DNA of 64,000 nt from Bacillota bacterium. GTDB lineage: Bacteria > Bacillota > UBA4882 > UBA10575. This document shows positions 27,893-51,448 of this stretch, one piece after another. The position numbers and the translations under genes are program-made. The notes beneath the pieces are model-generated. The model saw only the letters and a list, made by a program, of their open reading frames with translations, ran no database searches and was not told the origin of the DNA. The stretch is from contig JAAYIC010000077.1 of NCBI GenBank assembly GCA_012735195.1, positions 10,471-74,470 of the forward strand, given 5' to 3'. Position 1 is the stretch's first letter; every line of letters begins with the position of its first letter.

Positions 27893-27981
27893 AGCGCGTA
27901 TGCGTAGTGTATGCGTAAACTCGCATACCGAACCTGCATACGCGCTTCTGCATGCACGCGCGCTTCCATGTACACGCGCAA
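27893..27981. repeat. Degenerate ~11-18-nt tandem repeats rich in alternating purine-pyrimidine palindromes
   Basis: Minus strand: gcgcgtgtacatggaa / gcgcgcgtgcatgcagaa / gcgcgtatgcaggttcg / gtatgcgagtttac / gcatacactac / gcatacgcgc. Confidence 0.75.
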
Positions 27982-30638: not shown

Positions 30639-31379
30639 TTAAAAACCAAATTCGATTACTCCCAAAGCGGCCAAAAGGGCCAGTAAAACCGGTTGGTGCA
30701 GGAGGTAAATAACCAGTGAATGCCGGCCTAAAAACATGACCCCGCGCAACAACGGAAACCTTGGGGAAGCAGGGAAGGGGAAACGGCGCTGTCCGGAAGG
30801 ATAGAGAAGGCCGCCCAAGAAGATACCAAGAAGAAACAGGCCAAACCAGGGGAGAAGCGGGAAGTAATCAACGGTATAGAACTGTTTCGGAACGAAGCCC
30901 AACCAGAGTAACCAGGGAAAAGGAAAAGTGAAATTCTCCAGGTAATTCCCGGCAACAAGGCAAAGAACCCCCACAGGTAAAGCCCACAATTGCCGTTTTA
31001 GAAAGGGAAAGGCTAAAATAATCGAGATTCCGATGCAATGGAGAACACCAAAAATGACAAAATCTTCCGGGAGAAAAAACCAGGTGACGACAGTGATAAC
31101 CATTCCCCAGGCAAAGATCTTTCCCCCTCTGCGAAAAATACGCCAAAAACTCCGGTCGTCCGCCCTGGCGTAACTCAGGGTCATGGCGATCCCCGCGATC
31201 AAGAAAAAAAGTCCTGCCGTGGTCTGCTGAAAATAGGACCAGAACCCGGCATCCAAAACGTACGGGTAGTCACCGAAAAACATCAAGTTAAAAAGGATGT
31301 GAAAAGTGATCATCATCATTACCGCAAGGCCGCGGAGGAGGTCAATCTCCCAAAAACGCTGTGAACTGTTTTTCCGCAA
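30639..31379 (-). CDS. DUF1624 (heparan-alpha-glucosaminide N-acetyltransferase-like) membrane protein
   Basis: RFWEIDLLRGLAVMMMITFHILFNL start; polytopic, 246 aa. Confidence 0.65.
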   Translation of the reverse strand: MRKNSSQRFWEIDLLRGLAVMMMITFHILFNLMFFGDYPYVLDAGFWSYFQQTTAGLFFLIAGIAMTLSYARADDRSFWRIFRRGGKIFAWGMVITVVTWFFLPEDFVIFGVLHCIGISIILAFPFLKRQLWALPVGVLCLVAGNYLENFTFPFPWLLWLGFVPKQFYTVDYFPLLPWFGLFLLGIFLGGLLYPSGQRRFPFPASPRFPLLRGVMFLGRHSLVIYLLHQPVLLALLAALGVIEFGF

Positions 31380-31535
31380 ACGCCTTCCCCCCTTCTCCTT
31401 CTGTGCACAGTTGCCTGCTGTGCGTAGTTGCCATACATGTCTGATCCGTTCTTTTCTCTGTGTGTACCGGGCGCGCCCCTTATTACTTCTTCTATTCTTG
31501 ATTAAAAAAGAGTTTCCTTTTTCCTACCGTCATTT

Positions 31536-31955
31536 GCGTGCATGCATGCGAAAAACATGAAGCGACACCTCGCACCTCAACGTATATAAAACATCGCCAT
31601 CTACACGCCCACGTGCGAAAAACATGGTTATTCCCTATGTCCGGGTTCTTCGGCCGGGGTTCGCCATTTACGCGTGCCCTACGAAAAACATGAGTTTACG
31701 CCAAAGGGCTCCCTTCCGGCCTGGGCTGGTATATACGCGCGTGCGCGCGTAAGGAAAACAGAACATCGCTCTTGTTTTTCAATAAACCAAATGACGCCGC
31801 TGTTTACCGCACATAAGGAAAACACTGAAAGCGGCTACATCTTCATCTCGCGGTTTTGAGATGTTGCCATATGCGCGCGCAAGGAAAACAAGCCGGTTTG
31901 AGGGTGCAGGAACGCAGTAGTTTGGCGCTTTGCGCGCATGAAAGGAAAACAGGGG
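31536..31955. repeat. Seven-copy degenerate periodic array (period 61-70 bp)
   Basis: Core CGAAAAACATG at 31549, 31616 and 31682. Core AAGGAAAACA at 31751, 31815, 31881 and 31942. Each core is preceded by an alternating R-Y tract (for example 31729-31751, gtatatacgcgcgtgcgcgcgta). Confidence 0.8.
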
Positions 31956-32032
31956 TTGCTTTTTCCCCGCACCCGGTCATATTATTAAAAGGTAACTAAA
32001 ATATCAAGGAATTATAATGAGGGGTGTTCAAA

Positions 32033-33148
32033 ATGAAAGATCCACGCCTGGCCAAACTGGCGGAGAATTTAATTACCTATTCTGTACAACTGCAACCGGG
32101 AGAAAAGATCCTTTTGGAAATAATCGGTGACGCACAGCCACTCGCGGCGGAATTGATAAAAACGGTTTACACTGCCGGAGGCTTGCCCTTTATCAAACTG
32201 GCCCATCCCAGTCTCAACCGGGAATTATTGAAGAAGGCCTCTGCCGGGCAATTGCAGGCCCTGGCGGAGTGGGACCGGTTGCAAATGAGCGCGATGCAGG
32301 CTTATATCGGGGTCCGCGCCGGAGAGAACACCAGTGAATTTGCGGACCTGCCCGGTGAGAAATTGTCGCTTTATCAAAAAGAGTATATCCTTCCGGTACA
32401 TATGGAGGTCCGGGTGCCGTCCACCAAGTGGTGCATCCTTCGTTATCCCAATGCCTCCATGGCGCAGTTGGCCAATATGAGTATTGAAGGTTTTGAAGAC
32501 TTCTACTTCAACGTCTGTAACCTGGACTATGCAAAATTCTCCAAAGCCATGGAGCCTCTGGTGGAGTTGATGGAAGCCACCGACCGGGTACGGATTACCG
32601 GTAAAGATACCGATCTTACCTTTTCCATCAAAGGGCTTCCCGCCATCAAATGCGACGGCCATAGGAATATCCCCGACGGAGAGGTCTTTACCGCCCCGGT
32701 CAGGGAGTCGGTGAACGGGGTGATCACCTTCAACACCCCCGCCCTCTACGAAGGTTTTACCTTTGAAGGGATCCGGCTGGAGTTCAGGGACGGGAGGATT
32801 GTGAAGGCCGCCGCCAACGACCAGAAGCGCCTCGAACGGATCCTCGATACGGACGAAGGCGCCCGGTATGTCGGCGAATTTGCCCTGGGCCTTAACCCGT
32901 ATATCCTCAACCCGATGAAGGATACGCTTTTTGATGAAAAAATAAACGGCAGTTTCCACTTTACCCCCGGTTCCTGCTATGACGAATGCGATAACGGCAA
33001 CAAATCGGCGATCCACTGGGACTTGGTCTTTATCCAACGACCTGAATTCGGAGGCGGGGAAATCTACTTCAACGACCGGTTAATCAGAAAAGACGGGCGT
33101 TTTGTCCTTCCGGCCCTTGAACCACTGAACCCGGAAAATCTGGTGTAA
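32033..33148 (+). CDS. Aminopeptidase, M29 (AmpS/PepS) family
   Basis: MKDPRLAKLAENLITYSV..., with NIPDGEVFTAP, GEFALGLNP and IHWDLV blocks typical of M29 thermophilic aminopeptidases. Confidence 0.8.
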   Translation: MKDPRLAKLAENLITYSVQLQPGEKILLEIIGDAQPLAAELIKTVYTAGGLPFIKLAHPSLNRELLKKASAGQLQALAEWDRLQMSAMQAYIGVRAGENTSEFADLPGEKLSLYQKEYILPVHMEVRVPSTKWCILRYPNASMAQLANMSIEGFEDFYFNVCNLDYAKFSKAMEPLVELMEATDRVRITGKDTDLTFSIKGLPAIKCDGHRNIPDGEVFTAPVRESVNGVITFNTPALYEGFTFEGIRLEFRDGRIVKAAANDQKRLERILDTDEGARYVGEFALGLNPYILNPMKDTLFDEKINGSFHFTPGSCYDECDNGNKSAIHWDLVFIQRPEFGGGEIYFNDRLIRKDGRFVLPALEPLNPENLV

Positions 33149-38716: not shown

Positions 38717-38930
38717 TCGCATCCCCGCGTGGAATACGCGCCTGCGTGTAAATAACGCATCGCGGAAGACATGGGGAGCAGCTTCCAACACGTAACACGG
38801 ACCTGCGCAGAAAAGGCGGTTATTCCGGGAATTACACCGGTTCGTTCAACAAACGTATTTTCGTATATCTTGTATGGACGCGGGTAAGTACGGCTTATCA
38901 GAGTCCAGCATCCAAAAGGAGGAAATATAG

Positions 38931-40436: not shown

Positions 40437-40534
40437 ACACCACGCGTACGCCCGATGCCTCCCAACAGCAGTCGAAAGAAACCAGGCGCGCAATATGCGT
40501 GTGCACATGCGTACATCCATGTATACGTGCATGC

Positions 40535-42028
40535 CTAATCTATGTTGCTTCTGCGCTTGACGCCCACTGCCATAAAAATACCCGGCGAATCCCAATTTTC
40601 CGCAATAACGCCTATGCGTAACCAAAGATCCCTCTGCAAACGCCAGACCGCCTCGAGCCGCTGCGCAGACCACCCGGGATTACCGGTTAAAGCCAAAGCC
40701 AGCTCCAGTTCGTCCAGATCCCATTCCAGGCCGGCCCGCCAGTAGCTCTTTGCCAGTTCGGTCCGGCCGTCAAGCAGAAAGACCAACGGGTACCAGGTTA
40801 CAAAGGCACGTACATGAGGGGAGAGTTGTACGTTATCAGAAACCCCCGTCATCAGGACGGGAGTGGCCACGGGTCCTAACCCCCCGGCAAGAGCGGCATC
40901 GAAAAATGTGCCGGACCCGGCCCACAGTTCCCTTTTTATCCCGATAAAATAGGTCTTCGGGGCCCGGGCGGAAACCTCCAGATCGCCCGCGTCACCCAGA
41001 GGCATGGTAAGACGCACGGCAGGGTTTAGTTCTCTCCCGGACGCGGATCCGCTACTGATCAAGCCGGTCTCAAGGATCAGTTCCTTATCGGGGCTCTGCG
41101 GAGAATGGGGGGCAAGGAGTCTCAATCCATCCAGGGAAGCCATGGGGATAACCGGCATCTCCGCCAATTGTTTCAGCCTAAACGGAACAGCACTCAACAC
41201 CAGGGCAAAAACCCGCTGTTCTTTCAACCCCGCAGTAAAAAGCCTTCTTTCTTTCCGATCCATCGTCCGGCGCATGAAGGCAATGATCTCCGGCTTTCCC
41301 CCGGCAGAGTTGACAGTGGTGGCCAGGGCAGCCTTTTCACCGTGATCCTGGTTTTCCCGCAGAAAAGAGACCTTCGTCTCCACCCGGCCGGTTTCTCTTT
41401 GGATAAAAACCGGGGTAATCTCCAGAAGGTAATTCTCGTCCTTATCATAGTATTCCGGATAAATAGCGCCGGTTTTCCACTTTACCGGCCGGCCGGGTAC
41501 GGCGATTATCCATGCCTCGGATGCCCCTTCATAACTACTGGATTCCGGTACACCGGGGTGTTTCATAAACCCATTTTCCACTAAAAAACGGACCCCGTTC
41601 TCGCCCCGGAGAATCTGGGGAGTTGCCACTAAACGGTAACTCTCCGCCGGTGTGCCGGTTCTGACTTCTCCGGAAAACACCCAGCCCCAGGTGGAGGTGG
41701 TTCCCAATTCCACGATCCTGAGGGAATATAAGATGAAGAGGGTGGCCGCATCGGCCAGGTTTTCCCTGAGAGCGGCCAAAACCTCTTCATCGGTTACCGC
41801 CGGGGCGGAAAGAAAATAGATCTCTTCTTCTTCATCATAGATCAGCCATCCATTAAAACCGGCGGGCATCTCCAGAACTCCGGGAGAAATAAACCCTAAC
41901 GGGATAAAGACAAGATCCGGCGTTATCTCTGTCTTCTCCGGGCCTTCAACCGCCCCGGCACCTGTGACCGGTAGCGTAATTAAGGCTAAAGCCAACACCA
42001 ACCCGCAGAGCCGGTGGTTTTTAATCAT
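40535..42028 (-). CDS. Secreted beta-rich protein of unknown function (497 aa), last gene of the secretin locus
   Basis: Start MIKNHRLCGLVLALALITLPVTGAGA (signal peptide) inside an ATGATTAA overlap with the upstream stop. The track ORF carries a 46-codon spurious extension. The C-terminal ~170 aa show alternating amphipathic strands (YFIGIKRELWAG..., VTWYPLVFLL, WRAGLEWDLDELELALALTG, LWLRIGVIAENW). Confidence 0.6.
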   Translation of the reverse strand: MIKNHRLCGLVLALALITLPVTGAGAVEGPEKTEITPDLVFIPLGFISPGVLEMPAGFNGWLIYDEEEEIYFLSAPAVTDEEVLAALRENLADAATLFILYSLRIVELGTTSTWGWVFSGEVRTGTPAESYRLVATPQILRGENGVRFLVENGFMKHPGVPESSSYEGASEAWIIAVPGRPVKWKTGAIYPEYYDKDENYLLEITPVFIQRETGRVETKVSFLRENQDHGEKAALATTVNSAGGKPEIIAFMRRTMDRKERRLFTAGLKEQRVFALVLSAVPFRLKQLAEMPVIPMASLDGLRLLAPHSPQSPDKELILETGLISSGSASGRELNPAVRLTMPLGDAGDLEVSARAPKTYFIGIKRELWAGSGTFFDAALAGGLGPVATPVLMTGVSDNVQLSPHVRAFVTWYPLVFLLDGRTELAKSYWRAGLEWDLDELELALALTGNPGWSAQRLEAVWRLQRDLWLRIGVIAENWDSPGIFMAVGVKRRSNID

Positions 42029-50368: not shown

Positions 50369-51448
50369 TTGAAAATCGGCGTTTTAACCGGCGGCGGGGA
50401 CTGCCCGGGAATCAATGCGGTTTTGCGGGCTGTCGTCAAAACCGCTGTTAATGAATACGGATGGGAAGTTGTCGGTTTCCGGGACGGCTTCCGCGGACTG
50501 GTGCTTAATGATTTTTGCCGCCTTACGCCTGCAGATGTCATGGGAATTCTGGTCCGCGGTGGAACAATCTTGGGTTCATCCAACCGCGACAACCCCTTTC
50601 ATTTCCGTCTGGAAGAAAATGGCCGGGTACGTTATGAGGACCTCTCCGGGCAAGCCTTGCGCAACGCGGAAGAGCAAGGCCTCGCCTGTTTGCTGGTGAT
50701 CGGCGGCGACGGTACCCTCAACTGCGCCCTGGATTTTATCGAAAAAGGGCTGCGGGTGATTGGGATCCCAAAAACCATTGACAACGATCTCAGCGGCACC
50801 GATTTGACCTTCGGCTTTATGACCGCTGTCGATACTGCCACCGATGCCCTGGAAAAGCTTCATACCACCGCCGAATCCCACCACCGGATTATGGTCCTGG
50901 AAGTGATGGGCAGATACGCCGGGTGGATTGCCCTGCAGTCGGGGATCGCCGGCGGCGCCGATGTGATCCTCATCCCCGAAATCCCTTATGACCTTGCCCG
51001 GGTCGGCAGAAAGATTCAAGAACGAAAAACCAAAGAAAAAAGCTTCAGCATAATTGTGGTAGCGGAAGGCGCCCACGCCGAAGACGGGGAGATGGTTGTC
51101 CGCCGCCGCGTGGAAGGGAGCCCGGATCCGGTGCGTCTGGGCGGGATCGGCCAACGGGTCGCAACGGACCTGGAGAAATTGACAGGAAACGAGGCACGGG
51201 TGACCATCCTCGGACACCTGCAGCGAGGCGGAAAACCTTCGGCCTTCGACCGGATTCTGGCCACCAGATATGGAGTGGCCGCCGTACACCTGGCGGCAAA
51301 GGGGGAGTTCAACCGCATGGTCAGCCTGCAAGGCCAGACCATCACCTCGGTCCCTCTGGATAAAGAAGTGACCAAACTCAAGAGGGTTCCGCCCGCCGGC
51401 GAGTTGGTGCAGGCGGCCAGGAATACCGGGATTGAATTTGGCAATTGA
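50369..51448 (+). CDS. pfkA: 6-phosphofructokinase
   Basis: MKIGVLTGGGDCPGINAVLRAVV, VIGGDGTL, PKTIDNDL and MGRYAGWIAL motifs. TTG start 7 nt after GGGAGG. Confidence 0.9.
   Translation: MKIGVLTGGGDCPGINAVLRAVVKTAVNEYGWEVVGFRDGFRGLVLNDFCRLTPADVMGILVRGGTILGSSNRDNPFHFRLEENGRVRYEDLSGQALRNAEEQGLACLLVIGGDGTLNCALDFIEKGLRVIGIPKTIDNDLSGTDLTFGFMTAVDTATDALEKLHTTAESHHRIMVLEVMGRYAGWIALQSGIAGGADVILIPEIPYDLARVGRKIQERKTKEKSFSIIVVAEGAHAEDGEMVVRRRVEGSPDPVRLGGIGQRVATDLEKLTGNEARVTILGHLQRGGKPSAFDRILATRYGVAAVHLAAKGEFNRMVSLQGQTITSVPLDKEVTKLKRVPPAGELVQAARNTGIEFGN

Follow-up and report, generated by a model that had tools for sequence, protein, structure and literature searches.

A degenerate repeat-spacer array between two divergent genes of a Bacillota genome, a candidate relic of off-target CRISPR spacer integration

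We analyzed a 64,000-nt stretch of DNA (hereafter, the window) from a Bacillota genome (GenBank assembly GCA_012735195.1, contig JAAYIC010000077.1, positions 10,471 to 74,470 of the forward strand). An intergenic region of about 650 nt in this window separates two divergent genes, one coding for a membrane acyltransferase and the other for an M29 aminopeptidase. The region contains seven degenerate repeats of 26-35 nt (R1-R7), which recur with a period of 61-70 bp, and six intervening segments (S1-S6), referred to below as spacers. The features of the locus, in window coordinates, are as follows.

30639..31379, minus strand: HGSNAT_cat/DUF1624-type membrane acyltransferase gene (Pfam PF07786, E 3e-76), divergent from the array
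31440..31527, plus strand: leader-like flank; its AT-rich end, cttgattaaaaaagagtttcctttttcctac, abuts R1
31528..31953, plus strand: intergenic array (R1-R7 and S1-S6) between the DUF1624-type gene and the M29 gene
31528..31559, plus strand: R1, 32 nt, CGTCATTTGCGTGCATGCATGCGAAAAACATG; its orthologue in sister species G001 is the one proto-repeat present there
31560..31594, plus strand: S1, 35 nt; source not found in the collections searched
31595..31626, plus strand: R2, 32 nt
31627..31661, plus strand: S2, 35 nt; sense-strand copy of codons ~12-23 of the genome's own Hsp20 gene (contig C113), 30/35 identical
31662..31692, plus strand: R3, 31 nt
31693..31727, plus strand: S3, 35 nt; sense-strand copy of chorismate synthase (aroC) coding sequence, 30/35 identical to the own gene (contig C128)
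31728..31761, plus strand: R4, ~34 nt; longest purine-pyrimidine palindrome; core AAGGAAAACA
31762..31796, plus strand: S4, ~35 nt, boundaries approximate; source not found in the collections searched
31797..31826, plus strand: R5, ~30 nt; the most degenerate repeat
31827..31863, plus strand: S5, 35-38 nt, boundaries approximate; source not found in the collections searched
31864..31892, plus strand: R6, ~29 nt
31893..31925, plus strand: S6, ~33-35 nt, boundaries approximate; source not found in the collections searched
31926..31953, plus strand: R7, ~28 nt; abuts the trailer
31954..32032, plus strand: trailer, a probable M29 promoter and ribosome-binding site (TATAAT at ~32014, GAGGGGTG before the ATG)
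32033..33148, plus strand: M29 aminopeptidase gene (Pfam PF02073)

Outside the array, just upstream of the DUF1624 start (31397-31432), a 17-nt direct repeat is present in two copies (CCTTCTGTGCACAGTTG / CCTGCTGTGCGTAGTTG). Its counterpart in G001 is longer and carries an additional insert.

All seven repeats share a common layout, in which a 5' part resembling CGCCAT(T/C)TAC is followed by a purine-pyrimidine tract and by an A-rich core at the 3' end. The initial annotation had located the core CGAAAAACATG at 31549, 31616 and 31682 and the core AAGGAAAACA at 31751, 31815, 31881 and 31942; these positions and the steps between core starts (67, 66, 69, 64, 66 and 61 bp) were borne out. Its view that no conserved repeat exists was overstated, as the units are degenerate copies of one repeat with pairwise identities of 62-87% (for shuffled sequences the mean is 57% and the 95th percentile 71%). 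No two of the seven copies are identical. The 10-11-nt core is invariant within R1-R3 and, in its second form, within R4-R7, and it is conserved beside every spacer while the remainder of the repeat varies. A consistent hairpin was not found in the repeats. The core spacing is not helically phased, and the cores do not form a regulon-like set elsewhere in the genome. The repeats had also been regarded as members of a dispersed family, a claim that fails: an nhmmer profile of the seven units scored only those seven in the whole genome (E 0.001-0.03), the best match beyond them has an E-value of 1.9, and the proposed half-units at 38762 and 38805 were absent among matches up to E ~70. The earlier observation is therefore partly confirmed, the array itself being real.

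Several lines of evidence speak for its reality. The 2.13-Mb genome has 453 copies of the octamer GRAAAACA, counting both strands; against ~0.05 occurrences expected per 430 nt of one strand, seven are seen here, all on the same strand. A periodic pattern of three cores gave five matches at the array locus and none in the reversed control; applied to 57 further genomes of the class, the same pattern revealed nothing comparable. In an independent metagenome assembly from an anaerobic digester (L062, run SRR3166092), the intergenic region is identical over all 650 nt, which rules out an assembly artefact. Between the two samples 15 positions differ in the flanking genes, and no spacer turnover is seen. 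We thus regard the array as real and stable. Tandem Repeats Finder (TRF) did not detect it because the units are too diverged. An Rfam scan of the region returned nothing meaningful, and promoter and terminator scans of the array gave nothing convincing above shuffled sequences.

Repeats of other kinds were noted elsewhere in the genome. On contig C52 (4240-4500), an 80-bp unit with two internal palindromes, GTTTGTACTTACGTACAAAC and CTTATACAG...CTGTATAAG, is repeated in tandem ~3.5 times upstream of what looks like a promoter region. On C12 (29380-29620), degenerate units of 12-15 nt (AAGAAGCACAAGCC / AAGAGAGGCAAACT) make up 240 nt of purine-rich sequence that directly precedes the start of a gene. 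Several unlinked genes (C108:69434, C15:45466, C93:39749 and C128:7020) have strong ribosome-binding sites (GAAGGAGGTG) directly preceded by tandem runs of the ACGAG(C/T)G hexamer type, which may represent a common 5'-UTR element.

The spacers had been described as ~35-nt segments unrelated to one another. This holds among the six, which are of near-constant length (35 nt for S1-S3, ~33-38 nt for S4-S6), but two of them copy genes found elsewhere in the genome. When the inter-repeat segments were compared with the genome by BLAST, two matches came up, S2 to Hsp20 and S3 to chorismate synthase. We also scanned the array in sliding 35-nt windows, noting for each the highest ungapped identity to any other place in the genome. 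Just two peaks emerged, each of 30/35 against a background maximum of 26; one starts at 31627 and the other at 31693, each time on the base that directly follows ...AAAAACATG. Thirty intergenic stretches served as controls (7,737 windows), and in these each examined match of at least 29/35 represented a true paralogue, not chance. The similarity of S3 extends to aroC of two sister species (31/33 in G001 and 32/35 in G002, E ~3e-7 per genome) and ends sharply after 35 nt. With the boundaries so fixed, S1, S2 and S3 are exactly 35 nt each and R1-R3 are 32, 32 and 31 nt, one boundary base being ambiguous such that 34 + 33 nt is equally possible. S2 and S3 have the same orientation, both being sense on the plus strand.

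Sources are thus assigned to two of the six spacers, both in coding sequences. None was found for S1, S4, S5 and S6 in the genome, in 20 genomes of the family or in phage, plasmid and viral collections: blastn searches with the array of 50,697 phage and 72,556 plasmid records yielded matches no better than chance, and the four transition-tolerant patterns derived from these spacers had 0 matches in IMG/VR. Similarities of S4 to recN and of S6 to recQ in relatives (E 0.04-0.09 per genome, about chance over 20 genomes) were rejected, since they are at chance level and the own genes match poorly. The 3 nt upstream of the two identified protospacers are TTT and CGA, not the TTC of type I-C systems. 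The left junctions of S2 and S3 display no microhomology. A genome-wide search of intergenic regions for other captured fragments returned only tRNAs, riboswitch-like elements, paralogues and short tandem repeats.

Two further features of the protospacers were noticed. Both end in GGGTT. In addition, the 10-mer CCCATGTCCA, which occurs eight times in the genome and resembles the 5' end of R2 and R3, lies inside the Hsp20 protospacer (C113:54599) and immediately 3' of the aroC protospacer (C128:2921). By a post-hoc estimate the chance of such a coincidence is ~0.4-1%; it may reflect a capture preference or be fortuitous.

To see the locus in related bacteria, we collected contigs by homology search, exact look-ups of the two flanking proteins having found nothing, and compared the only two available assemblies of the present species with the only four of the sister species. 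In G001, whose M29 protein is 90% identical, the orthologous site contains a single 32-nt copy, CGTCATTTGTACACACACACAAGAAAACCATA. The order there is leader, one proto-repeat and trailer. Both flanks have orthologous counterparts here, beside R1 and R7: the leader-like flank aligns with the sequence 5' of the single repeat (~77% identity) and the trailer with the sequence 3' of it. The one-proto-repeat state is shared by all four sister-species assemblies (G001 and the independent L033, L063 and L064). A more distant relative with the same divergent gene pair (M29 80% identical) has a 253-nt intergenic region without a recognizable repeat. G002 was left out of this comparison, its contigs breaking on both sides of the locus, and a metagenome scan with a leader pattern yielded only one G001-type contig and one chance match. 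The states of the relatives therefore indicate the polarity of change: from no repeat through one repeat to seven repeats and six spacers. The array repeat is probably a duplicated local sequence, single-copy at the orthologous site of the sister species.

The sister species also offers a candidate machinery. G001 codes for a complete type I-C operon, in which a WYL regulator is followed by cas3-cas5d-cas8c-cas7-cas4-cas1-cas2. Its 32-nt repeat, GTCGCCCCCCGTGCGGGGGCGTGGATTGAAAC, alternates with 33-34-nt spacers at a period of 65-66 bp. The corresponding values for the best-defined units of the present array are a 31-32-nt duplication, 34-35-nt spacers and a period of 66-67 bp. The old repeats at the trailer end of the G001 I-C array are degenerate in the middle and keep their 3' end. 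In one stretch of this array (positions 365-660 of L061, G001:C140) progressively degenerate repeats retain GTCGC... and ...GATTGAAAC, their internal palindrome being altered; the same stretch embeds AATTCCTCATAGGTAGGCTAAAAAC, which resembles the reverse of a different (I-B-like) repeat. In sequence, the present repeats are 54-72% identical to the I-C repeat, around the range of shuffled sequences (mean 57%, 95th percentile 71%), and only R7 reaches the 95th percentile, at 72% with 11 gaps.

The initial annotation had noted that no cas gene lies within the window, and the absence extends to the whole genome. Neither the Cas1, Cas2 and RAMP HMMs nor tblastn with the seven I-C proteins gave a match in this assembly, which is 94% complete, so that the absence is not absolute. 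The I-C repeat is likewise missing from the genome, and a periodic k-mer scan found no other CRISPR-like array in it, and none that is canonical.

The two assigned spacers make it possible to consider age and decay. S2 agrees with the own Hsp20 allele at 30 of 35 positions, with that of G001 at 28/35 and with that of G002 at 25/35, and it keeps one base common to both sister species at which the own gene has since changed. S2, closest to the own allele and retaining this ancestral base, was therefore captured in the present lineage after the species split. Changes specific to the spacers number four in S2 and one in S3, that is, 5 in 70 nt, all of them transitions, which translates into ~7% drift since capture. 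The other four differences between S3 and the own aroC fall on synonymous sites that are variable within the genus. This drift is consistent with the divergence of R1/R2 and R2/R3 (19-30%) and its transition bias (9:1 for R1/R2). Intergenic divergence between the present genome and G001 is ~23%.

Within the repeat, change is uneven. When R1 is compared with the G001 proto-repeat, 9 of the 13 positions of the purine-pyrimidine tract differ, against ~23% in the flanks, which makes the tract a mutational hot spot. Its alternation needs no selective explanation, since transitions preserve it. Alternating purine-pyrimidine tracts of at least 16 nt, rich in palindromic hexamers, number 87 in the genome. 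In DNA left unassigned by a crude gene caller their density is ~0.14 per kb versus a random expectation of 0.015 (~9-fold). They appear to evolve by transitions and slippage. Examples are found at 27893-27981, 40480-40535 and 50963-50986 in the window (C57 coordinates), at C2:15247-15283 and at C32:15509-15538. For the cores, drift predicts two to three changes per set, and their identity hints at constraint or uneven mutability; low mutability of the A-run, or some constraint, may keep them perfect.

To insert a spacer, Cas1-Cas2 attacks the DNA twice, at staggered positions separated by one repeat length, and the sequence in between is duplicated on repair. In vitro, integration reportedly prefers sites beside cruciform-prone sequence abutting AT-rich DNA, and the proto-repeat site has both. 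In our opinion, the array is best explained, with a probability of about 60%, as a relic 'neo-CRISPR' that arose when Cas1-Cas2 integrated spacers off target, was later orphaned and now drifts, chiefly through transitions. A Cas1-Cas2 integrase, most likely belonging to a type I-C system similar to that which the sister species still has, would have repeatedly inserted ~35-bp fragments at a non-CRISPR intergenic site, the array growing in place. The target would be the AT-rich stretch abutting the palindromic purine-pyrimidine tract, and every insertion would have duplicated ~32 bp of it into a new 'repeat'. Loss of the cas genes would thus have come after six ectopic integrations in succession, all by a type I-C-like adaptation module. 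At least two of the fragments would have been taken from the lineage's own chromosome (Hsp20 and aroC). The two core variants fit leader-proximal addition, because any change that arises in the first repeat passes to every copy made afterwards. Repeats and spacers would now be drifting by transitions, with slippage in the purine-pyrimidine tract.

This explanation draws together what the data show: how the array is built, the derivation of two spacers from genes with exactly placed junctions, a site that is empty in relatives, an I-C array of matching geometry in the sister species, a genome in which no cas genes were found and an array without a second example. We infer the integrase from the sister species because no Cas homologue was found in the 94%-complete assembly. 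The cas genes were presumably lost rather than never present, and the array is presumably inert now. Self-derived spacers would normally be lethal. Here they would be tolerated because the pseudo-repeats, having neither the I-C handle nor a consistent hairpin, are unlikely to become working guides. A 'decayed array' had been among the possibilities raised at the outset. The exact spacer length, the gene fragments with sharp junctions and the I-C geometry favor it over the other options raised there, and the initial interpretation is partly supported, but the array was probably never a canonical CRISPR.

Several observations count against off-target integration, the lack of any Cas homologue in the assembly among them. 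Integration makes identical repeats, yet none here are identical, and thus ~7% drift and a hypermutable tract are needed. The type I-C TTC PAM is absent at both protospacers. Four of the six spacers have no source in the collections searched. Finally, it would be unusual for one off-target site to be used six times in succession. The identical cores, too, are only partly accounted for.

Of the alternatives, the one that survives best is that the array is the remnant of a canonical CRISPR array with an unrecognized repeat family, which would predate the species split, have collapsed to a single repeat in the sister species and have decayed here after cas loss. Array geometry and captured spacers are equally expected in this case, the trailer-end repeats of the G001 I-C array are likewise degenerate with their 3' end kept, and collapse of CRISPR arrays by recombination between repeats does occur. 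However, an array with the present repeat was not found in 58 genomes of the class. In a search of 185,579 species genomes with the periodic core pattern, the multi-hit loci inspected among the matches listed were unrelated CRISPR arrays with 37-nt repeats or tandem repeats. Moreover, the outgroup site has no repeat, the similarity of the repeat to the I-C repeat of the genus does not exceed the shuffled background, and S2 derives from a post-split allele of the present lineage. We consider this origin unlikely.

A more functional possibility is that the array works, independently of cas genes or served in trans, as a guide or regulatory array whose unit RNAs regulate hsp20, aroC and other genes. 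Each unit would combine a 10-11-nt handle with a 35-nt guide, self-derived in S2 and S3, and RNA from the minus strand would be antisense to both mRNAs. The perfectly conserved cores beside all spacers, in otherwise variable repeats, agree with such a role, as do the shared orientation of S2 and S3 relative to their source genes and the identity of the array in two independent samples. The genome, however, has no effector candidate and no cas genes, the repeats lack a consistent hairpin, and no promoter or terminator is convincing above shuffles. Guide and target are only 86% identical, with contiguous matches to hsp20 of at most 9 nt, and the sister species carry the target genes but not the array. 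A working guide array is thus quite improbable. We can also imagine an array that arose by integration and was later domesticated, its selected cores serving as handles of unit RNAs for a putative, perhaps trans-supplied, RNA-guided effector, so that the self-derived guides tune a stress-protein gene (hsp20) and an aromatic amino-acid gene (aroC). This is highly speculative. If true, it would mean that a CRISPR array was caught at birth on a new site and then co-opted for gene regulation.

Equally doubtful is an origin by repeated repair of breaks, or by template switching, at a fragile tract prone to forming Z-DNA or cruciforms, with genome-copied 'filler' inserted. The ~9-fold enrichment of purine-pyrimidine tracts in the intergenic DNA of this genome is in its favor, and so is the presence of CCCATGTCCA in or adjoining both source sites. 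Nevertheless, filler should vary in length, whereas three consecutive inserts are exactly 35 nt, and a 31-32-nt flank is duplicated each time. In addition, microhomology is absent from the left junctions, and no other intergenic tract holds captured gene fragments.

The idea of nothing more than an iterated protein-binding or promoter platform, formed by tandem duplication of a ~66-bp unit, accords with the location in a divergent promoter region and with the phased conserved cores, but is hardly credible, since tandem duplication cannot put fragments of two unlinked genes between the copies (which already contradicts such an origin), the cores recur nowhere else as a regulon-like set and their 61-70 bp spacing is out of helical phase. 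The regulator-binding platform suggested in the initial annotation therefore leaves the gene fragments in S2 and S3 unexplained as regards origin; secondary use of the conserved cores by a regulator may be envisaged.

If the array did arise by off-target integration, the locus bears on the origins of CRISPR arrays, and its value is moderate to good for that field and low for others. To our knowledge, the birth of CRISPR arrays is still largely inferred, and few putative natural off-target cases are known, the demonstration of such integration having come from an engineered E. coli system. The present locus provides a natural before/after pair, with an empty site holding one proto-repeat and the likely responsible I-C system on the one side and a six-spacer array, some spacers recognizably self-derived, without cas genes on the other. 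It also provides a rough clock for the decay rate of orphaned repeats and spacers. Standard CRISPR finders require conserved repeats, and loci such as this one are consequently missed.

Comparison with known systems places the array as follows. It differs from REP-, BIME- and MITE-like families in having only seven local copies and none at unlinked loci, with no array in 57 genomes of the class. Degenerate repeats flanking guides that partially match host genes are shared with self-targeting spacers and CRISPR-like regulatory RNAs. CreA-type guides with degenerate repeats act with resident Cas effectors, whereas the present genome has no effector. Like a canonical CRISPR array, the locus has unique spacers of near-constant length, two of six being copied from DNA elsewhere; unlike it, the repeats are not near-identical and the genome has no cas genes. 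Orphan arrays left after cas loss share with it the cas-less genome, the decaying repeat-spacer structure and the lack of spacer turnover between samples. They differ in that the present repeat is a local duplication, found once at the site in relatives, and belongs to no recognizable CRISPR repeat family.

The I-C array of the sister species is close in geometry, both in repeat length (31-32 versus 32 nt) and spacer length (34-35 versus 33-34 nt) and in period (66-67 here versus 65-66 bp), and its old repeats are also degenerate centrally with the 3' end kept. However, repeat similarity is no better than chance, the present repeats lack the GATTGAAAC handle and the stable 7-bp hairpin, and they are not of the GTCGC...GCGTGGATTGAAAC type of the I-C family. 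Neither adjacent cas genes nor a TTC PAM at the two protospacers are present.

The closest counterparts are the neo-CRISPR loci of E. coli. Off-target spacer integration that spawns new arrays has been demonstrated in this bacterium (Nivala et al. 2018, Nat Microbiol 3:310), according to the accounts given in 10.1101/148544, PMC6698737 and PMC13142298, and Shmakov et al. 2020 (as cited in PMC13142298) list it among the ways in which orphan or isolated arrays may originate. To the extent that these accounts describe the E. coli loci, the present array differs in being natural, in having six spacers rather than one or two, some of them identified as derived from self genes, and in residing in a genome that is now cas-less. 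Its repeats have already diverged to 62-87% identity, and its integrase is deduced only. On the same descriptions, it shares with them spacer-sized inserts at a non-CRISPR chromosomal site, duplication of a target of repeat length, AT-rich DNA paired with a palindromic tract, a repeat unrelated to the canonical one and an empty site visible in relatives. We would class the locus as a natural instance of a process that is known but has rarely been documented.
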